NCBI RefSeq assembly: GCF_964213995.1
Contig: NC_135808.1
Span: 23,622,001 to 23,686,000 of the forward strand
Source: Mustelus asterias
Taxonomy: Eukaryota
DNA length: 64,000 nucleotides
Direction of reading: 5' to 3'
The notes beneath the pieces are model-generated. The model was not told the DNA's origin. It did not search any database and was given only the letters and a program-made list of their open reading frames with translations. The first letter of the stretch is position 1. Every line of letters starts with the position of its first letter. The position numbers and the translations under genes were made by a program. Shown piece by piece: positions 7,195 to 47,863 of the stretch.

Positions 7195-8920
7195 TTTGCA
7201 GGAGACACGTACCCTTGCAATACCCCAAAACATGTACTGGAGGATCGGAATGCCCCCTCCCCCAAGTTCCCCAGTGTTACAATGTAACAGGTGATAACAT
7301 TATATATGTTGTAATGTGACCTTGGATAACAAGTTGTAAGTGACAGCTGACCCAGTAAACTATATAACTAATAACAGAATGATGTTGTAATCAGCTGACC
7401 AGCTGACTCAGTATAAATAAGAACCTGTTGCAAATTGTCAGATTGCTTGTAAGGGCCCAGGGTAAGGCCTCAAGTTTGGAGTAATGCAGTTTCTTTATTA
7501 AAACTTTTCTTTGATTTATAAGTTGGAGTAAGGAATGTTCTATTTTTTATTGTCTACACAGGAAGAGATCCTTCTGGATCAACACCCAAGAGCTGCTCAG
7601 TATTTTTAAACTCCCAATCGACAATTAGCCCACACCTGGAACCAACCGAATCTCCATTTTGAATCGGAGTCTTCAGTTGGTTCAGGTTTTATGAGCAGAA
7701 TAGTTACCCAGGAAATGTTAGAAGAATCACTACCACTTCCAATTTTCCACCGCAATGGTGATGCGATTACCCCACCTCACAACCCTGTGACAATGTGACT
7801 CCTATTCCCACTGACAACCCCACCTCTCCGTCCCGTCTACATGAGACCCTGATCATCTGACTCCCACGATGTCCCATCTCCCTGTACCTCTAACTTTGCA
7901 AGTCCCTGAACCACAACCCCCTAAATTGCTTGACTAGCCTCCACCACATGTATTCCCTGATGTCCCCCCTAATCAACTGACTCATCACCCTCCCTCTCCC
8001 CCGCCCCCACACTTACTTTACATACTTAAATTCCCACCTGCAAAATGGGTGGAAGATACAGATTTACAGCAGGTGGAACCATAAAATGGGAATATGGATT
8101 CACTCCTCTGATAATGCTCTTCCATACAGAATTGACCCTGCAGCAGCTATGGTGCACATTGGCCGATTTTAAGGAAGGATGGATGGACCATGAAGAGATA
8201 ATCCCATCTACAATATCACATATCAGCTGACATTGAAACCAGGAAGGAATACATTCCTGTCCAGTAATCAGCCATTAAGTTGTGATGCCATGGTTGTCGG
8301 CTACTATGACGTCAACCCCACTGCCTTACCCAAGCTCTTCTGTTTATGTATGGTCCATTCAGCAGGTCTTATGCAGACAGGAACCCACCCCTCCACCCTC
8401 AATGGAGTGATTGGAAAAGAACAAGAGAAATAGAGATAGAAGATGGAGTGTGTGGTGGGGTGGGGATGGAGGGGTGGTGGGGGTGTATGCAGGTTGAATC
8501 AAATATCTCCAAAAGTCAAATATTCAGAATACTGCAAACAAAATGTTGACATTTGCAGCATTCCATCTTTTAAGCAAATATTGTTTCTATCTGAGCCGGT
8601 ATGAGTAGCTGAGTGGAGGTGGAGCAAAGCATGCCCTGGCGATTCTTTTAACCCCCCATTTACATTGTGGGGACTGGAATATCTCACCGGCGGGAAGGGT
8701 GAGAACATTTAGCCACATGGTTGCTCTTCCCATCATGTCCTGTAGGGGACCTTGTAATTCTCTTCCTCCCCACTGTCCGTGTCCAAATATCGACCTCCAC
8801 CCCTCCAACATGACCAGTACCATCACGACAACTGGAGGTATTTTTATATCCTCAGTCATTCAGTTGATTGAATGTTCCAAAGATGAAATCTAAGCTCCAG
8901 TACTCGCCTCTGGTCTGCTA

Positions 8921-9810
8921 TCAGTTGTTTTGTTTATTAAGTTGTTGAATAATGGACGTAAATGGATATTTCACCACACTCTTGAACTGCTCCCTAAACT
9001 TGAACTGAGTCACACCATAAATAAATGAATTTGTACAGCAATTTAAATTCAGAAGCACCACTCCAACTGTGCAAGAATGTACATAAGATTACTGTGATAC
9101 ACATGGTTAATTCCTGTAATAATATAATATCAGAAATGTATAACATATAATAACCACAAAAGTATAAAGCTGCCAGATATGGTGAAGAGTAAGATCATGG
9201 ACTTCCTTCTGCACTCCATCTCTGGGTCACTGCCATTCTCTCCCTTGTTCCAACCCCTCAATGCCTTACGGGCTCGACTGGTCACCAGAATGTACCTGAC
9301 TGTCAGAGCGTTGAGCAACAGTATTAAAACAATGGGATCAATGTGTTTAAAATGTTATCAAACCAACTATATGCCACCCATGCAGGATCGGTCTAATAAC
9401 TAAACTTTTCATTACAGAACCAGGGAACATTGTCAATTATCTCTCCAGGTTCAAATGTAAAGTACATGGTCGTATCTTTTAAACAAAGCAGAATGCAAGT
9501 TTTTGTTCGAATCATGGCTGCTGTTTTCTCAGTGCAGGATTTTATCTTCAACTTCTGATAACAAATGACCACAAATCGATCAAATGAGAACATAACAGTG
9601 AACCAGACTGCAGCTGTATGTCAGGATGAAGGTAATACTACACACGGGGCGATTTCAAGGAAAGATGTGGGGAAATATTAGGAACCAAACCAATATTGTA
9701 TGATTATAGTATGATTGCAGTGATAATTAGCAGTAGATCCGCTGTTGCATGGCAACCAGGTAGCGAGTGGTGCAGGTGGAGAGGCCGCATTTTCCCCGCC
9801 ACTAGATTAA
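8921..9810 (-). pseudogene. GPR139/GPR142-like class A GPCR, large second exon, disrupted
   Basis: Acceptor ttgcag then (V)NLVA..GKCGLSTCTTRYLVAM, FSFDRFVVIC, DPEMECRRKSMILLFTISGSFILLW, CCTNSFIYGVTQFKFREQF, stop at 8921-8923; several frameshifts and stops. Confidence 0.85.
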
Positions 9811-10299
9811 CTGCAAGAGACAGGACAAAAAATACTGATCTGTCTCCATGCCCGATGGTTGGAGGCGAATCTGGTGTTCAGATGCTAATAATTACGTTTC
9901 CAACCTGACGCCATCCACTTTTGGTTATATTGGTGATGGGGAAGAAACAGCCCAAATTGTTCAACTTTTTAATTAGGTTGGCAGGCAGTGATATAATCAG
10001 TTCCACATGTATACGTTGTCATGTTCCCCAGGCCTCATACAATGAAACAGCCCCCACCTTCAATGGCGAAAAGATCAACTTAATATAAGGCAGGTCCATT
10101 CAAAATTCTGATGGCAGCAGGGAAGAAACTGATCTGAAGTCGGTTGGTAAGTGACCTCAGATTTTTGTATCTTTTCCCCGATAGAAGAAGGTGGAAGACA
10201 GCATGTCCGTGGTGCATGGGGTCCTTGATTATGCTGGCTCCTTTTTTCTGAGGCAGCGGGAAGTGTCGACGGAGTTAATGGATGGGAGACTGTTTTCCA

Positions 10300-15204: not shown

Positions 15205-15872
15205 CCGAGCTTGACATTGCCCCTCTTGCACTCCATCACTCACTGACCCAGGGTTAATGCCCCAGTACCCAGCCTGGCATTGCCCCTCTCATACCCCATC
15301 ACTCACTGACCAAGGGCTAATGCCCCAGTACCCAGCCTGGCATTGCCCCTCTCACACCCCATCACTCACTGACTCAGGGTTAATGCCCCAATACCCAGTC
15401 TGACATTGCCCCTCTCACACCCCATCACTCACTGACCCAGGGTTAATGCCCCAGTATCCAGCCTGGCATTGCCCCTCTCACACCCCATCACTCACTGACC
15501 CAGGGTTAATGCCCCAGTACCCAGTCTGACATTGCCCCTCTCACACCCCATCACTCACTGACCCAGGATTAATGCCCCAGTACCCAGTCTGACATTGCCC
15601 CTCTCACACCCCATCACTCGCTGACCCAGGGTTAATGCCCCAGTACCCAGCCTGGCATTGCCCCTCTCACACCCCATCACTCACTGACCCAGGGTTAATG
15701 CCCCAGTACCCAGCCTGACATTGCCCCTCTCACACCCCATCTCTCAGTGATCCAGGGTTAATGCCCAGTGCCCAGCCTGGCATTGCCCCTCTCACACCCC
15801 ATCACTCACTGACCCAGGGTTAATGCCCCAGTACCCAGCCTGGCATTGCCACTCTCGCACCCCATCACTCAC
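15205..15872. repeat. 63-bp tandem repeat, about 10.5 copies (intron 1 of MHC copy A)
   Basis: Unit ctgacccagggttaatgccccagtacccagcctggcattgcccctctcacaccccatcactca; about 2.5 copies at 45425-45587. Confidence 0.95.
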
Positions 15873-15915
15873 CTGCAGACACCTCTCCACACAGAAGGAC
15901 CATCAGTCCAATCAT
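15873..15915 (-). pseudogene. MHC class I leader exon of truncated copy A (no downstream exons)
   Basis: MIGLMVLLCGEVSA-G|GTGAGT; paralogous to 45588-45636 with a 6-bp deletion. Confidence 0.85.
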
Positions 15916-16346
15916 TGCTGCATCCTTCAGATTGGAAGAAACCTTTGGAGGAAACTCTTTTTCAAAGAAAGGGGATCTTCTCAACTTGTTCCTTCTGTCT
16001 TTTTCTGTTCACCCGAAGCCGCAATCGGATTAGACACAAAACAGGTTGGCAAACTTCCTCAATATTCAGAATTCTCCAAACAGGGAAATACAACTGGTTA
16101 TATTATGTTTGCTCAGTGGTTAGCACTGCTGCCTCACAGCGCCAGGGACCCAGGTTCAATTTCAGCCTTGGGTGACTGTCTGTGTGGAGTTTGTACATTC
16201 TCCCTGTGTCTGTGTGGGCTTCCTCCGGGTACTCCTGCTTCCTCCTGCACTCCAAAGATGTGCAGGTTAGGTGGACTGGCCAAGCTAAATTGCCCCTTAC
16301 TGTCCAAAGATGTGTGTGATAGAGGATTAGCCATGGTAAATATGTA

Positions 16347-17634: not shown

Positions 17635-18654
17635 AAATATGTAGGGTTACAGGGATGGGGCCTGGGTAAAGATGCTCTGTCTGAGATTTGGTGCTGACTT
17701 GAATGGGCTCATTCTATGATTCTAACATCATCAGTTGCCGGATAGAATAAGCCAAAATGAGTTTAATACAGTGACAGAGGGAAGGACATGAAGAAGAGCA
17801 GCAGATCTGAGCTAACCATTCAATTAGATCACTACTGATCTCAACCCCAGCTTCTGACTATAAAATTATTACCCAATAAAAATCTATCACTCTTACATTT
17901 GAAAGCTCCAATTGTTCACATTTTTTTGTGCAGAGACTGGATGTGGATTTCACACTGCTGAATCATTTTAACATTATAAACATATCGATCAGATCATCCC
18001 TCAACATTCTAAACCCGAGGGAATAAGTTTTTACATGCTGTCAAACTTTATACTTTATTGTGAAAAGCCGATCCTCTAAAGCACGTCTCTGCAGACTGAA
18101 TTGTTCTGTTTGCCCTTTGTCAGTGCTCAGGAGTTGGGGCTAATATTGTTGCATGAACAGAGGATTGGTTAATGGACAAGAAACATTGATTTGGCATAAA
18201 TGGGCCCATTTCAAGTTGGCCAACTGTGACTAGTGGATTGTCACGAGGATCAGTGCTGGGACAATCAGCCATTTACAATCTTTATTCGTGACTCAGACCA
18301 AGAGGCCAAGTGTAATGTATCTAAATTTACAGCAGCTACAAAGCTAGGTGGAAATGAGGAGAGATTGACTCAGTTAGGATTGTGTTCGTTGGAGTTTAGA
18401 AGAATGAGGAGGATCTCATCAAAACCTATAAAATTCTAACAGGAAGAGACAGGCTAGATGCAGAAGGATGTTCCCGATGGCAGGGGAGTCCAGAACCAGG
18501 GGGCCTATTTGAAGTATATGCGGAAAACCATTGAGGACTGATTATGAACATCCTGGGGATTACCATTGACCAGAAATTGAACTGAACCAGCCATATAAAC
18601 ACTGTAGCTACAACAGTGGGTTAGAGGCTGGGAATTTTGTGGATAGTTTAAATT

Positions 18655-39914: not shown

Positions 39915-42376
39915 TGATGTGGAGATGCCGGCGTTGGACTGGGGTAAACACAGTAAGAAGTTTAACAACACCAGGTTAAAGTCCAACAGGTTTATTTGGT
40001 AGCAAAAGCCACACAAGCTTTCGGGAACACAATGAGACAGCCAATGAACCGGAACAGCCGACAGAGAGATCCGCAGTGCATCCGAAGAGGAAAGAGTCGA
40101 ATTGGACTCCTCCGGAAGGCCGCTGCCCTCGACTTGACATGTATGCCCAAGCCGTCAGGAGGTGCGTCAACACCAAATTCATCAGCCGCACTCACAAGAC
40201 AGCCCCGAACATCACCCAAGCACAACGTAACGCCATCCACGCTCTCAAGACCAACCGCAACATTGTCATCAAACCAGCAGACAAAGGAGGGGCCATCGTC
40301 ATACTGAACAGAACGGATTACTGCAAAGAAGTGTACCAACAACTCAACAACGAGGAACACTACAGACAGTTACCTGCAGATCCGACCAAAGAACACACCC
40401 GTCAACTCAACACTCTGATCAAGACCTTTGATCCGGACCTTCAGAACACCCTCCGTGCTCTCATCCCACGTACTCCCCGCGTTGGAGATCTCTACTGCCT
40501 CCCGAAGATACACAAGGCAAACACACCCGGCCGTCCCATCGTATCGGGCAATGGGACCCTGTGCGAGAACCTCTCCGGCTATGTCGAGGGCATCCTGAAA
40601 CCCATTGTACAAAGAACCCCCAGCTTTTGTCGCGACACGACGGACTTCCTACAGAAACTCGGCACACATGGAGCAGTTGAACCAGGAGCGCTCCTCGTCA
40701 CAATGGATGTCTCAGCACTCTACACCAGCATCCCCCATGACGATGGCATTGCTGCAACGGACTCAGTGCTCAGCGCCAACAACTGCCAGTTTCCAGATGC
40801 AATTTTACATCTCATCCGCTTCATCCTGGACCACAATATCTTCACCTTCAACAGCCAGTTCTTCATCCAGACACACGGAACAGCCATGGGGACCAAATAT
40901 GCACCTCAATAAGCCAACATCTTCATGCACAGGTTCGAACAAGACTTCTTCACCGCACGGGACCTTCAACCGATGCTATACACTAGATACATCGATGACA
41001 TTTTCTTCCTTTGGACTCATGGTGAACAATCACTGAAACAACTCTATGATGACATCAACAAGTTCCATCCCACCATTAGGCTCACCATAGACTACTCTCC
41101 GGAATCGGTTGCATTCTCGGACACGCGCATCTCCATTAAGGACGGTCACCTCAGCACCTCACTGTACCGCAAGCCCACGGATAACCTCACGATGCTCCAC
41201 TACTCCAGCTTCCACCCTAAACACGTTAAAGAAGCCATTCCCTACGGACAAGCCCTCCGTATACAGAGGATCTGCTCAGATGAGGAGGATCGCAACAGAC
41301 ACCTCCAGACGCTGAAAGATGCCCTCATAAGAACAGGATATGGCGCTAGACTCATTGATCAACAGTTCCAACGCGCCACAGCGAAAAACCGCACCGACCT
41401 CCTCAGAAGACAAACACGGGACACAGTGGACAGAGTACCCTTCGTCGTCCAGTACTTCCCCGGAGCGGAGAAGCTAGGGCATCTCCTCCGGAGCCTTCAA
41501 CATGTCATTGATGAAGACGAACATCTCGCCAAGGCCATCCCCACACCCCCACTTCTTGCCTTCAAACAACCGCACAACCTCAAACAGACCATTGTCCGCA
41601 GCAAACTACCCAGCCTTCAGGAGAACAGTGACCAAGACACCACACAACCCTGCCACAGCAACCTCTGCAAGACGTGCCGGATCATCGACACAGATGCCAT
41701 CATCTCATGTGAGAACACCATCCACCAGGTACACGGTACATACTTTTGCAACTCGGCCAACGTTGTCTACCTGATACGCTGCAAGAAAGGATGTCCCGAG
41801 GCATGGTACATTGGGGAAACTATGCAGACGCTGCGACAACGGATGAATGAACACCGCTCGACAATCACCAGGCAAGACTGTTCTCTTCCTGTTGGGGAGC
41901 ACTTCAGCGGTCACGGGCATTCGGCCTCTGATATTCGGGTAAGCGTTCTCCAAGGCGGCCTTCGCGACACACGACAGCGCAGAGTCGCTGAGCAGAAACT
42001 GATAGCCAAGTTCCGCACACACAGGGACGGCCTCAACCGGGATATTGGGTTCATGTCACAATATTTGTAACTCCCACAGTTGCGTGGACCTGCAGAGTTT
42101 CACTGGCTGTCTTGTCTGGAGACAATACACATCTTTTTAGCCTGTCTTGATGCTCTCTCCACTCCCATTGTTTTGTTTCTTAAAGACTGGATTAGTTGTA
42201 AGTATTCGCATTCCAACCATTATTCATGTAAATTGAGTCTGTGTCTTTATAAATTCTGTTTGTGAACAGAATTCCCACTCACCTGAAGAAGGGGCTTAGA
42301 GCCTCGAAAGCTTGTGTGGCTTTTGCTACCAAATAAACCTGTTGGACTTTAACCTGGTGTTGTTAAACTTCTTACG
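39915..42376 (+). mobile_element. Penelope-like element (Neptune type) with inverted partial pLTR; RT and GIY-YIG, one premature stop at 40910-40912
   Basis: IKPADKG, GTAMG, RYIDDIF, Cys motif PCHSNLCKTC, VVYLIRC...WYIGET; 39915-40023 is an inverted copy of the pLTR end; TSD atattgtaatat at 39903-39914 and 42377-42388. Confidence 0.95.
42280..42316 (+). ncRNA. Minimal type I hammerhead ribozyme candidate
   Basis: CAC-CUGAAGA-A-GGGGC/uuaga/GCCUC-GAAAGCUU-GUG. Confidence 0.7.
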
Positions 42377-42989: not shown

Positions 42990-43253
42990 CGTAAATCACC
43001 ACAAGTGTCTCCTCCACCCCGCTGTGTTCCACCCGACAGGAATACTCGGCCTGGTCCTCTGGATCAAACTCTACCCATTTCCGGATCTGGTAGGTGCTGT
43101 CGTGATTGGGTAAGATCCCACTGCACAGAGTCTCATCAATCACCACTCCGTCTCTCCACAGATTCACCTCGATGGCCTGAGGGTAAAACCCGGTGACAGC
43201 ACAGGAAAGCCGGTTAGAATCACCCAGACGGGTAAAGGACACGACGGGGGCAA
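42990..43253 (-). pseudogene. MHC class I exon 4 (alpha3, C1-set Ig domain)
   Basis: 264 bp open: VAPVVSF...LSCAVTGFYPQAIEVNLW...ILPNHDSTYQ...YSCRVEHSG; canonical ag/gt. Confidence 0.95.
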
Positions 43254-43319: not shown

Positions 43320-44488
43320 TCACGGACTCTCACTCCCCCCTCACCCACCGACTCTCACTCCCCACCTCACTCACTGACTCTCGCTTCCCCCCTCACTCAC
43401 CGACTCTCACTCCCCCCTCACTCACCGACTCTCACTCCCCCCTCACTCACCGACTCTCACTCCCCCCTCACTCACCGACTCGCACTCCCCCTCACTCACC
43501 GACTCTCACTCCCCCCTCACTCACCGACTCTCACTCCCCCCTCACTCACCGACTCTCACTCCCCCCTCACTCACCGACTCGCACTCCCCCCTCACTCACC
43601 GACTCGCACTCCCCCCTCACTCACCGACTCGCACTCCCCCCTCACTCACCGACTCGCACTCCCCCCTCACTCACCGACTCGCACTCCCCCCTCACTCACC
43701 GACTCGCACTCCCCGCTCACTCACCGACTCTCACTCCCGACTCTCACTCCCCCCTCACTCACCGACTCTCACTCCCCCATCACTCACCGACTCTCACTCC
43801 CACCTCACTCACCGACTCTCACTCCCCCCTCACTCACCGACTCTCACTCCCCCCTCACTCACCGACTCTCACTCCCCCCTCCCTCACCGACTCTCAATCC
43901 GCCCTCTCACTCACCGACTCTCACTCCCTCCTCACTCACCGACTCTCACTCCCTCCCTCACTCACCGACTCTCACTCCCCCCTCACTCACCGACTCTCAC
44001 TCCCCCCTCACTCACTGACTCTCACTCCCCCCCTCACTCACCGACTCTCACTCCCCCCTCACTCACTGACTCTCACTCCTCCCTCACTCACTGACTCTCA
44101 CTCCTCCCTCACTCACCGACTCTCACTCTCCCCTCACTCACCGACTCTCACTCTCCCCTCACTCACCGGCTCTCACTCCCCCCTCACTCACCCCCCCCTC
44201 ACTCACCGACTCTCACTCCCCCCTCACTCAGCGACTCTTGCTCCCCCCTCACTCACCGACTCTCACTCCCCCCTCATCACCGACTCTCACTCCCCCCTCA
44301 CTCACCGACTCTTACTCCCCCCTCACTCACCGACTCTCACTCCCTCCTCACTCACCGACTCTCACTCCCCCCCCTCACTCACCGACTCTCACTCCCTCCT
44401 CACTCACCGACTCTCACTCTCCCCCTCACTCACCGACTCTCACTCCCCCCTCACTCACCGACTCTCACTCCCCCCTCACTCACCGACT
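43320..44488. repeat. 25-bp minisatellite, about 46 copies, filling MHC intron 3
   Basis: Unit ctcactcccccctcactcaccgact. Confidence 0.95.
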
Positions 44489-44754
44489 GTCAGTAATTTT
44501 TGTCCGTACTCCAGATATTTCCTCAGCCACTCGATACACTCCACTTCCAGGTAACGTTTCCATCACTGGTTAATGCCCGTGCTGCCCTCCCACTTTTGTT
44601 TGGTGATCTCTCCCCAAGGGACGGGGGTCACCCACACCAGAAGATCCTTATCAAAACTGATAAAATCTCGTCCATCCCACCCGTACTGGTTGAATCCAGT
44701 CGTATTCCCATCATCACAGGTCACAGCCGGTCATCAGCTGGTGTATGTGGATCC
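44484..44754 (-). pseudogene. MHC class I exon 3 (alpha2), inactivated
   Basis: GIHIHQLMTGCDL/DDGNTTGFNQYGWDGRDFISFD...WGEITKQKW...Q*WKRYLEVECIEWLRKYLEYG; 271 bp (2-bp deletion) plus an in-frame TGA. Confidence 0.95.
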
Positions 44755-45090
44755 CTGTGGATTAGAAAGATAACCTGCCAATCAGGGCCAGTCCCAATAA
44801 AAGCTGCACTCACCATGAAACAACCCAAATAGATCCGTTCCCACTGGAGGTCCAGCCACCACACACACACACACACACACACACACAGCCAATCCGGCCC
44901 CATCCAACTGGAGGCAAAGCCACCAAACACACACAATCAGATTCAGTCGACCAACAGACCTTACAGAGCCATGCACAACCTCAGTTAATCAGACCCCAGT
45001 CCCAGATCCTGATCCGCTCCCAGTTTCTCCCACTCTGACCCAGACGCCCTGCATCCTGAGAAAGAGGCTGAGTGCTGGGAGTTTGAAGAC

Positions 45091-45351
45091 CTCCCGACTG
45101 GTTGGTTCGATACATGAGGGTCTGAATATTATCTTTGAAACATCGTTCCACCTCCTGTGCGAGCTTCTTCTTCTGTTCCCAGGACTCAAACCCCTCGCTC
45201 TCCACCATCCACTGCTCCCGGGGGATCAGCTCCCTCCGATCGCTGTCGTACACAACAAACTGGACACCGTCCACATAACCGACACCCACAAACTCCGGGA
45301 AATCCGGGATCGGAGTCATTCCCGTGAAGAAATACCGGAGAGAGTGAGAGC
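45091..45351 (-). pseudogene. MHC class I exon 2 (alpha1)
   Basis: 261 bp open: GSHSLRYFFTGMT...FVGVGYVDGVQFVVYDSD...RTNQSG; weak donor GTCTTC. Confidence 0.95.
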
Positions 45352-45587
45352 CTGAAATAGAGAGAGAGACATCATGGTATGTACCCCAAAACATTAATTT
45401 TAAACTGAGAGCAAGATCTCCACCCAGCCTGGCATTGCCCCTCTCACACCCCATCACTCACTGACCCAGGGTTAATGCCCCAGTACCCAGCCAGGCATTG
45501 CCCCTCTCACACCCCATCACTCACTGACCCAGGGTTCATGCCCCAGTACCCAGCCAGGCATTGCCCCTCTCACACCCCATCACTCAC

Positions 45588-45636
45588 CTGCAGACACCTC
45601 TCCACACAAAAGGACCAGCTCTATCAGTCCAATCAT
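45588..45636 (-). pseudogene. MHC class I exon 1 (signal peptide)
   Basis: MIGLIELVLLCGEVSA-G|GTGAGT, phase 1, splices in frame to SHSLRY. Confidence 0.9.
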
Positions 45637-45745
45637 TGCTGCTTCCCTCATGTTGGGGAAACATTTGGAGGAAACTCTTTTTCAAAGAAAGGCCATTTTC
45701 TCAACTCACTCCTTCTGTCTTTCCCTGTTTACACTGAGCCTCAAT

Positions 45746-45812
45746 CTGATTGGACACAAAATAGGGCTGAACCAATCAGAATAAAGAGATTCAGTGAGTC
45801 ATCAGTCTCCGG
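45746..45812 (-). promoter_or_regulatory. Proximal MHC X1-X2-Y module plus CCAAT box
   Basis: Minus strand CCGGAGACTGATG/TGACTCA, 20 nt, CTGATTGGTT, then CCAAT; matches MHC X-Y consensus and spacing. Confidence 0.8.
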
Positions 45813-45826
45813 CAGAATAGACACAA

Positions 45827-46001
45827 TGTGGAGATGCCGGCGTTGGACTGGGGTGAACACAGTAAGAAGTCTCACAACACCAGGTTAAAGTCCAACAGGT
45901 TTATTTGGGAGCAAATATCATAAGCTTTCGGAGCGCTGCTCCTTCGTCAGACGGAGTGACCACTGTTGGACTTTAACCTGGTGTTGTGAGACTTCTTACT
46001 G
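45827..46001. mobile_element. 175-bp Penelope pLTR-only insertion with inverted arms
   Basis: Inverted pLTR pieces; 13-bp TSD agaatagacacaa at 45814-45826 and 46002-46014. Confidence 0.9.
45919..45953 (-). ncRNA. Minimal type I hammerhead ribozyme candidate
   Basis: Minus strand CGU-CUGACGA-A-GGAGC/agc/GCUCC-GAAAGCUU-AUG. Confidence 0.68.
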
Positions 46002-46016
46002 AGAATAGACACAAAC

Positions 46017-46022
46017 AGGTTG
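46017..46022 (-). promoter_or_regulatory. Class I-type S box (CAACCT), displaced by the Penelope insertion
   Basis: Removing the insert and one TSD places CAACCT 16 nt from the X1 box. Confidence 0.65.
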
Positions 46023-46049: not shown

Positions 46050-46091
46050 CCAATCAGATAAATACAGCTGCTGACATCATCAGTTGCCGGG
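46050..46091 (-). promoter_or_regulatory. Second (distal) X1-X2-Y module
   Basis: CCGGCAACTGATG/TGATGTCA, 20 nt, CTGATTGG. Confidence 0.75.
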
Positions 46092-46282
46092 TCGAATCAG
46101 CTGAAAGGAGTTTGATCCAGTGACAGAGGGAAGGACATTAAGAACAGCAGCAGGTCTGAGCGAACCATTCAGTGAGATCACTGCTGATCTGGACCCCAGT
46201 TTCTGACTATAAACCATATCCTCAGATATCATTACCCAATAAAAATCTGTCACTCTGAGATTGAAAAGCTCCAATTGTTAAA

Positions 46283-46630
46283 TCTTAGAATCTTAGAATC
46301 TTAGAAACCCTACAGCACAGAGAGAGGCCATTCGGCCCATTGAGTCTGCACCGACCACAATCCCACCCAGGCCCTACCCCCATATCCCTACATATTTACC
46401 CACTAATCCCTCTAACCTACGCATCCCAGGATACTAAGGGCAATTTTAGCATGGCCAATCAACCTAACCTGCACATCTTTGGGCTGTGGGAGGAAACCGG
46501 AGCACCCGGAGGAAACCCACGCAGACACGAAGAGAATGTGCAAACTCCACACAGACAGCGACCCGAGCCGGGAATCGAACCCAGGTCCCTGGAGCTGTGA
46601 AGCAGCAGTGCTAACCACTGTGCTACCGTG
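46283..46630 (-). mobile_element. HE1 SINE, absent from the copy A paralogue
   Basis: Near-full SINE with (ttctaaga)n tail; flanks match 17880-17960 once it is removed. Confidence 0.88.
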
Positions 46631-47863
46631 AAAATAACTTTTTATTGTGGAGAGACTGGATGTGGATTCCACACTGCTGAATTATTTTAGCATTCTAAAC
46701 AGATCGATCAGATCACCCATCAACATTCTAAAAGCTGGGGAATAAAAACCCCTTTTATTTCACCTCCTTTTATTATTCTGGTGATCAGAACTGCACCCCC
46801 TCCAAGACCAATCTCCCCTTCCTGAGGTGTGGTGTCCAGAACTGAACACACTGACTCCAGAAAGTGTCTGACCAAGACTCTGTTAAACTGAAGCTTCACT
46901 TCCATCACTTTATATACCAGCCCCCTCCAGATAAAGTTCAATGTGCCCTTAGAGAGAATGGTGAAATGGGCAGACACAAATACAATGCAGAGAAGCGTTT
47001 TAAGTGATGCAGTTTGAAGGGAAGAAAATAAACAGTTAATCTAAACTGAATGGGACGGTTATAAAGGGATTGTGGGAACAGAGAGACCTGAGTGAATATG
47101 ATGGTGGCAGGAAGGTGTGATAAGACTATTAAAGAAGCATCTGGACCCCATTGCTTTATAAATAGCAGCACAGATTACAAAAGCAAGGAGGTTGTGGAAT
47201 TGCATGAACTAAAGAATAGCATGATGGGAAAATTGGTACAATATAAGAAAGACTGACTCTGCAGAACATAAAACATGACTGACCTCCATGTAAATCTGAT
47301 AAAGCTGACTTCATATAACTTATGACGTGAATGAGATCAGTGAAGGTCAAGCTCTTCCAATTTCCTGACCTCTAAGGCCCGATAAGATTGATTCCTCATA
47401 GCCTAAGACTAGAGGAGTAAATAAAACAAGATAAGGTCAGGGATGACAGAAATCACCGAACTTCGTCTGTTACATCAATGGGCAAGATAAGGGTTTGAAT
47501 GATGCGACAAAAGGTTCTGGGAGGTCAACAGGTTATAACATGATTAATGGTATTGCTTATACTTCTATTAATGATCGAATTCCTGAATAAGCTGTGGTCA
47601 CGCTAACTGATAATGATTATGTATAAATACTGAACTGTTTCTTTCTGTAAGCGTGGACTTGGGGAGGAATTAGCATGTTATAATAACTGCTCTCTGAACC
47701 CAAATTTCAGCCAAAAACTGCATGCAGTCTTTTCGTAAATAAAGGCTTGTTATTTTGTCTGAACTAACATTGTTGAGTTTTTCTATCACAGTCAAGAAGC
47801 AGGAAAGTTTCCACTTCAACAAGGTCACGCTGAACATTAATGAACTATTGGTTAGATTGATTG

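Follow-up and report, generated by a model that had tools for sequence, protein, structure and literature searches.

The window analyzed here, a 64,000-nt stretch of contig C8 (NC_135808.1, positions 23622001-23686000), carries an MHC class I gene on its minus strand with promoter modules upstream of it. Exon 1 (leader, positions 45588-45651 of the window), exon 2 (alpha 1, 45091-45351), exon 3 (alpha 2, 44483-44753) and exon 4 (alpha 3, 42990-43253) were located on the minus strand, and no transmembrane exon was found by tblastn in the 64-kb window. The frames of exons 2 and 4 are open. In exon 3, two lesions occur in this copy alone, the loss of 2 bp near 44716 and a stop codon at 44563-44565, and the donor site of exon 2 (45089-45090) lacks 4 bases in all three copies that carry the insert described below. 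The alpha 1 exon matches the shark class I structure 6LUP (E = 5e-24), and identity with the horn shark class I protein O19480, which we take to be of the UBA lineage, is 68-85% per exon. A preliminary description of this DNA had recognized that the gene is broken in exon 3, and this holds; it was silent on the exon-2 donor deletion, on the distal promoter module and on the membership of the gene in a group of ∼45 near-identical paralogues.

The paralogues of the gene, ∼45 near-identical copies, form one cluster. At least ∼40 near-identical promoters were placed at 21.7-24.65 Mb on C8 by DNA search (best 40 of 2818 candidates scored), and a class I family search revealed further class I genes in the same region, giving a cluster span of 21.6-24.7 Mb. 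Class II alpha genes lie on C8 at 34.3 and 34.5 Mb, and ABC-domain exons, which scored under the family cut-off and may be TAP-like, at 41.1-42.2 Mb. From its position on C8, the multicopy class I cluster sits apart from the class Ia region. Position, copy number and similarity to O19480 make it likely that the window gene belongs to the UBA lineage. Loci and gene copies are denoted by L numbers, and a copy termed intact is intact in exons 2-4 and their splice sites, the only parts that the term covers.

Tandem X-Y modules in the promoter

Two X-Y modules stand in tandem upstream of exon 1, with all boxes on the minus strand. In the proximal module, an S box reading CAACCT (46017-46022), whose last bases and the following G make up a CCTG half-site 14 nt ahead of the Penelope junction, precedes an X1 box (45800-45813), an X2 box reading TGACTCA (45795-45801), a Y box CTGATTGG (45772-45779) 20 nt after X1, and a CCAAT box (45746-45753) that is the inverted twin of the Y box and is shared with the divergent class I promoters L073, L075, L093 and L098. 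A second intact X-Y module (46050-46091) was found ∼60 bp upstream of S. It consists of an X1 box (46078-46091), an X2 box TGATGTCA (46072-46079) and a Y box (46050-46057), again 20 nt after X1 and lying within a perfect CTG-N16-CAG Penelope target. By eye, 11 of the 14 bases of the proximal X1 box are those of the mouse H2-K X box, and 11 of the 14 bases of the distal X1 box are those of the H2-Eb X box. The proximal X2 (TGACTCA) is presumably AP-1-like and the distal X2 (TGATGTCA) presumably CRE-like. A weak and uncertain candidate for a distal S, the off-consensus hexamer CAAACT, lies 17 nt before the distal X1 (46109-46114).

The S, X1, TGACTCA, Y (20 nt past X1) and CCAAT elements of the preliminary description were all confirmed on the minus strand, and its 16-nt S-X spacing had to be corrected. 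The spacer was measured up to where the 14-nt X box begins, with the bounds of that box taken from the H2-K/H2-Eb hybrid primers of PMC4374748. In this H2-K register it is 15 nt in the window copy after removal of the insert, and 15 nt across the cluster; the earlier count had run to CCGG. The hexamer at the place of S in the 36 insert-free promoter rows was CAACCT (15), CACCCT (7), CATCCT (4) or CAAACT (3), and was absent or shifted in the remaining 7. The sister carriers L032 and L033 have CAACTT, vs. CAACCT in the window. The distal module was recognizable in 21 of the 44 promoter rows, and the distance between the two modules is 90 bp in empty copies vs. 278 bp in the window copy.

An X-20-Y pattern matched twice in the window, against 0.01 matches expected, and none of 100 shuffles reached 2. 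Genome-wide, this pattern, which was derived from these same modules, gave 54 exact matches, none of them off C8 (50 fall in the cluster and two each at 41.60 and 43.33 Mb), and the reversed control gave 1. An initial 19-nt pattern overlooked the proximal box because the proximal X2 is one base shorter. Judged from its sequence, the window promoter is a set of tandem X-Y modules of mammalian MHC type upstream of a broken class I gene, and these modules are likely bound by RFX, CREB/AP-1 and NF-Y.

Rearranged relatives of this promoter were also observed. A second class I exon-1 fragment without a start codon is present on the minus strand of the window (15871-16060 and 17727-17741). Its promoter has lost the proximal X-Y between the spacer and the CCAAT box, and a SINE together with 1.3 kb of Penelope sequence severs its distal X. 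Promoters of this type, with the proximal X-Y deleted, also precede the genes of L106-L108, in which exons 2-3 are open. In L069 (about 2265-2295) and in L099, the stretch from the Y box to the inverted CCAAT is flipped, a micro-inversion between inverted boxes. In the window, a SINE (46271-46632) lies upstream of the distal module and is missing in sisters L032 and L033.

The Penelope insert and its target

The proximal S box is separated from X1 by an insert of 175 bp (45827-46001), which with one copy of the duplicated target shifts S by 188 bp. The insert, the 13-bp duplication and the 188-bp shift of the preliminary description are real, since insert-free paralogues hold the 13-mer once. 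The upstream copy of the duplication (12 bp and a further, ambiguous base) is at 46002-46014 and the downstream copy at 45814-45826, both given on the minus strand. Between them lie an inverted 39-bp pseudo-LTR piece of Penelope (45963-46001), a minimal type I hammerhead on the gene's strand (minus, 45914-45956), the other arm of the 39-bp inverted repeat (45860-45898) and a one-sided 33-bp Penelope tail (45827-45859). Loose ends of sequencing-run contigs accumulate at 45826 and 45859-45861. Inverted truncated copies, a pseudo-LTR and a one-sided tail have been described for Penelope-like elements (PMC8557442, PMC3846280; PMC11167929). The marks of a Penelope insertion are present here: a duplication with an empty site, a one-sided tail in the 30-40 bp range (33 bp) and an inverted truncated pseudo-LTR.

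The preliminary description had called the insert ribozyme-bearing. The minimal hammerhead motif is indeed there; two changes weaken its stem I in the window copy, whereas stem I is intact in L032 and L033. An Rfam scan of the 64-kb window gave no match at the gathering score, hammerhead included. Among 80 hammerhead motifs of the element family the first stem I pair covaries (U-A in 45, C-G in 34 and U-G in 1); stem II was within the search pattern, and only the stem I pairing is a free test. The single hammerhead of the window is predicted to be inactive, and a ribozyme role is improbable because a single minimal motif of this type failed to cleave in vitro (PMC4209133).

A near full-length Penelope relative occupies intron 4 of the same gene (39915-42375), with RT-like and GIY-YIG frames and one stop between them. 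It occupies a CCTG-N16-CAGG site and has a duplication of 12 bp. The segment 39980-42070 shares the ends of the insert; its GIY-YIG match (E = 3.6e-4, 21.2 bits) is just below the cut-off of 22.6, and its RT motif was recognized by eye, with no Pfam RT match in that segment. The family is abundant, with 11 hammerhead cores per 200 kb in random stretches. C8 stretches off the class I genes (L129-L148) hold 3 Penelope ends per 200 kb, vs. 22 per 200 kb on other contigs.

CCTG was found 14 nt before the element tail 2370 times, vs. 328 times at 9 nt. The 32 insertion sites with a usable far end among 49 tails, which were otherwise unselected, showed a CTG-N16/17-CAG dyad, perfect in 11 and with one mismatch in 14 (0.27% and 3.8% at random); the dyad is present with at most one mismatch in 25/32 sites vs. 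∼4% at random. CAG was present at the far side in 15 of 23 loci that had been selected solely by the left CCTG, and the duplications of the family are ∼12 bp. CCG was tried as a favored half-site and rejected, as it occurred just 66 times at 14 nt although background CCG is nearly as common as CCTG. The Penelope element of the anole prefers AT-rich DNA and an ATT motif, and its protein, a predicted dimer, cuts and extends both strands in vitro (PMC11167929). An ATT preference of that kind was not evident at 81 non-redundant ends of the family studied here.

In the window gene, the dyad is perfect at the distal Y site and has one mismatch at the S-X site, where X1 supplies CGG. The insert likely landed in the S-X spacer because a half-site preferred by the endonuclease is present where the S box ends. 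The S box and the following G would act as the left half-site, with the element entering 14 nt after CCTG. A dimer of the GIY-YIG endonuclease would nick both strands, staggered, ∼14 nt from each half-site, and two such nicks would leave duplications of 12-13 bp. Nicking of both strands by a dimer, as proposed here, accords with the both-strand cutting by the anole protein (PMC11167929). Module, insert and hammerhead are of known kinds; what is new is the proposed connection of the S box with the Penelope target. The Penelope literature that we consulted by text search, available in part, gave no account of a CTG-N16/17-CAG dyad target. The dyad yields a concrete prediction of how Penelope endonucleases cut.

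The site was hit repeatedly. Inserts in the S-X spacer were found in 7 of the 44 promoter rows, and amount to four events with the same cut points, that of L034/L035 without its left junction. Opposite orientation, different subfamily ends and placement in trees indicate that the four are independent; the trees join L069 with the empty L099, and L046 with L040 (support 100/99). Insertions at the distal Y site are seen in L040, with two elements, in L067 and, uncertainly, in L066, giving at least three events. A Penelope tail also lies 11 nt ahead of X1 in L076, a divergent class I promoter at a distance of 20 Mb. The intron-4 dyad sites of the paralogues have likewise been hit repeatedly, as judged by eye. 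For the S-X site in 40 copies, a rough rate model, built on six bases and 32 sites, predicts 0.09 insertions, and 4 were observed; at the distal Y site the excess is weak (0.9 expected vs. 3 observed, p = 0.06). The target sequence sets the position of insertion, not its full frequency. Accessibility, a longer motif or tolerance must contribute, because the S-X site was hit far above the modeled rate. The locus offers a case of conserved regulatory geometry attracting a mobile element in the birth and death of a gene family.

Fate of the gene

Expression was inspected in assembled contigs from four sequencing runs, which carry no start site, strand or level. Run X12 (type unrecorded) contains the exon 1-2 joint. 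One of its contigs (45587-45852) extends from exon 1 through the duplication and enters the insert by 26 bases (31 needed for bridging), and another crosses the shortened donor with 29 exon bases, below the 31-base rule. These contigs give a weak hint that insert carriers are transcribed; absent cover in intron 1 and upstream was not counted as proof.

The preliminary description held that the insertion, by moving S 188 bp away, may have silenced the gene; on such a reading the donor deletion and the exon-3 lesions would be later events. This would fit reporter data, in which the S box is essential to NLRC5 activation in mouse (PMC4374748) and an altered W/S-X distance reduces an HLA-DRA reporter's expression (PMC4381081), and the insert would uncouple S from the proximal X-Y, lowering NLRC5-type activation. 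The check that the description had suggested, on relative age, was run: the same insert is present in three copies (window, L032 and L033), of which only the window copy has the exon-3 frameshift and stop, which makes the insert older than these lesions. Five of the seven carriers of S-X inserts are broken or truncated. However, the loss of 4 bases at the exon-2 donor is present in 3/3 carriers and has the same apparent age as the insert, and the nine closest insert-free sisters (L036-L039 and L041-L045) are all broken, by other lesions. L046 and L069 (exons in L088) have independent, larger inserts at the same spot, yet exons 2-4 and their splice sites are open. Both X-Y modules of the window remain intact, and the X12 contig that enters the insert hints weakly at transcription. 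Exons 2-4 are open in 2 of the 7 carriers vs. 22 of the 35 other copies (Fisher p = 0.12; copies non-independent, L057 excluded), a split that leans to some cost of the insert; counted by insertion event, they are open in 2 of 4. We consider silencing by the insert, with the other lesions following, quite improbable, and it is unlikely that the insert by itself switched the gene off. It is also unlikely, if slightly less so, that the insert re-routes expression, with a start further upstream, in the distal module or the pseudo-LTR, and a transcript that takes in both hammerhead and proximal module. The intact distal X-20-Y, the orientation of the hammerhead on the gene's strand and the reach of the X12 contig upstream of the proximal module are in keeping with such a start. 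Against it, a contig of run X2, from another organism and without the insert, also passes upstream through the proximal module, which makes this reach unspecific; contigs cannot show where transcription starts, and the single minimal hammerhead of PMC4209133 remained uncleaved in vitro.

The S box of the cluster could instead be a decaying relic, with X-Y alone mattering and inserts in the S-X spacer neutral. The spacer of 15 rather than 16 nt throughout the cluster, the variable hexamer (CAACCT in 15 of 36 rows) and the open exons of genes with an altered S are consistent with such decay, which we hold to be a serious possibility though short of an even chance. Against it stands the fact that CAACCT is the commonest state and agrees with modules in which spacer identity is down to 0.34. 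A related question is whether the repeated hits stem mainly from open, unmethylated germ-line chromatin, or from tolerated or favored damping of surplus copies, with the sequence fixing only the base at which the element enters. The surplus of S-X events over the modeled number, the sparse element ends on the other C8 stretches (3 vs. 22 per 200 kb elsewhere) and the tail before X1 in distant L076 speak for such an origin. Conversely, intron-4 dyad sites of the same genes were hit many times (by eye), the rate model rests on six bases and 32 sites, and the excess at the distal Y is weak; we consider chromatin or tolerance less likely than not to be the main cause. Most likely, the gene was lost to the deletion at the exon-2 donor that the three carriers share and to ordinary birth-and-death decay, the insert being a tolerated passenger. 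We are reasonably confident of the whole formed by tandem X-Y modules, a Penelope element at a half-site supplied by S, and a passenger insert in a gene lost through donor deletion and decay.

Comparison with other promoters and known systems

In the mouse, the H2-K primer reads TAACCT, 16 nt, X, 20 nt, Y, and the corresponding spacings of H2-Eb are 16 and 19 nt (PMC4374748); the class I S consensus used here comes solely from that H2-K primer. Four shark loci outside the cluster, in the region of the TAP-like exons (L075, L093, L096 and L147), have an S of YAACCT type (TAACCT, CAACTT or CAACCT), a 16-nt S-X spacer and a 20-nt X-Y gap. L075 (41.60 Mb) and L093 (43.33 Mb) carry two modules each. 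The first reads TAACCT-16-X1-20-Y and has an ISRE-like site immediately ahead of its S; the second reads CAACTT- or CAACCT-16-X1-20-Y, and a CCAAT box follows its Y. L075 has, by eye, classical-type peptide anchor residues. CAACCT-16-X1-20-Y modules without an assigned gene were found in L096 (1116-1180; C8 42.41 Mb) and L147 (C8 41.70 Mb), and are candidate distal enhancers of the class Ia region. Over six modules, from a scan that picked on X1 and Y alone, mean identity is 0.66 in S and 0.34 in the neighboring spacer.

Three features of these loci were noted in passing. In exon 2 of L075 (C8 41.594 Mb), the assembly shows two extra bases within a GC run, a lesion or an assembly error. L096 contains, at 7224-9998, long frames resembling gag/pol that belong to an LTR-type element. 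L093 (C8 43.33 Mb) has its tandem-module promoter and a leader exon, and no class I exon 2 within the next 40 kb.

Both class II alpha promoters have X1-19-Y, with TTGCGA or TTGAGA at S; the family search for class II beta gave no match, and the class II comparison covers the alpha promoters. No module was found upstream of the L072 leader, L073 has AGAAAC at S with a 21-nt gap, and no module was detected in 160 kb around the TAP-like exons. One exon in the genome encodes an atypical CARD of NLRC5 type above the cut-off (44 bits vs. 28.6).

The idea that the geometry is conserved across jawed vertebrates, advanced in the preliminary description, gains from L075, L093, L096 and L147, which are like H2-K; it does not extend unmodified to the window, where the spacer is one base short, or to the cluster, where CAACCT occurs in 15/36 rows. 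These comparisons make it likely that the S-X-Y geometry, including an S box of class I type, is ancient. A bolder version would hold that two modules, a class I one with an S read by NLRC5 (YAACCT-16-X-20-Y) and a class II one with another S, read by CIITA (X-19-Y), have been distinct for as long as there have been jawed vertebrates. In sharks the class I geometry would double as a landing pad for the abundant Penelope element, recurrent insertions at one pair of cut points stripping individual paralogues of S and retuning their expression through the distal module without abolishing it; we think this version rather doubtful. Sharks are the oldest living group having an MHC. If true, a class I-specific S and a class-specific X-Y gap would trace the two-transactivator system back to the base of the jawed vertebrates. 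The cluster provides a natural promoter series (15- or 16-nt spacer, one or two modules, with and without the insert, S variants) that makes the reading of the S box testable.

W/S, X2 and Y motifs are known from many teleost class I promoters, and for salmon cells the authors prefer IRF1/STAT1 to the enhanceosome (PMC7573153). We found no account of an S-X-Y module in class I promoters of cartilaginous fish in the literature within reach, most subscription papers lying beyond it. A nonclassical UBA class I cluster has been described in sharks (PMC10751288, PMC12562908), and the window cluster is likewise multicopy, UAA-like and located away from the class Ia region.

The window insert has the same anatomy as EN+ Penelope-like insertions (PMC8557442, PMC3846280, PMC11167929). 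Unlike the anole element, with its preference for ATT (PMC11167929), this family shows the CTG-N16/17-CAG dyad. The hammerhead shares its core, stem II, short stem I and a palindromic stub replacing helix III with the minimal hammerheads of Penelope pseudo-LTRs; unlike those, it is present as a single copy with a weakened stem I (PMC4209133).

Compared with the NLRC5-type module of mouse H2-K, the window promoter shares the YAACCT S, 11 of 14 X1 bases and the 20-nt X-Y gap, and L075, L093, L096 and L147 share the 16-nt S-X spacer as well. Unlike H2-K, the cluster has two tandem modules, S-X spacers of 15 nt (proximal) and ∼17 nt (distal), and an AP-1-like proximal X2 (PMC4374748). The CIITA-type module of H2-Eb is matched at 11 of 14 bases by the distal shark X1, and its 19-nt X-Y gap is shared by the shark class II alpha promoters, which unlike H2-Eb have TTGCGA or TTGAGA as S (PMC4374748).
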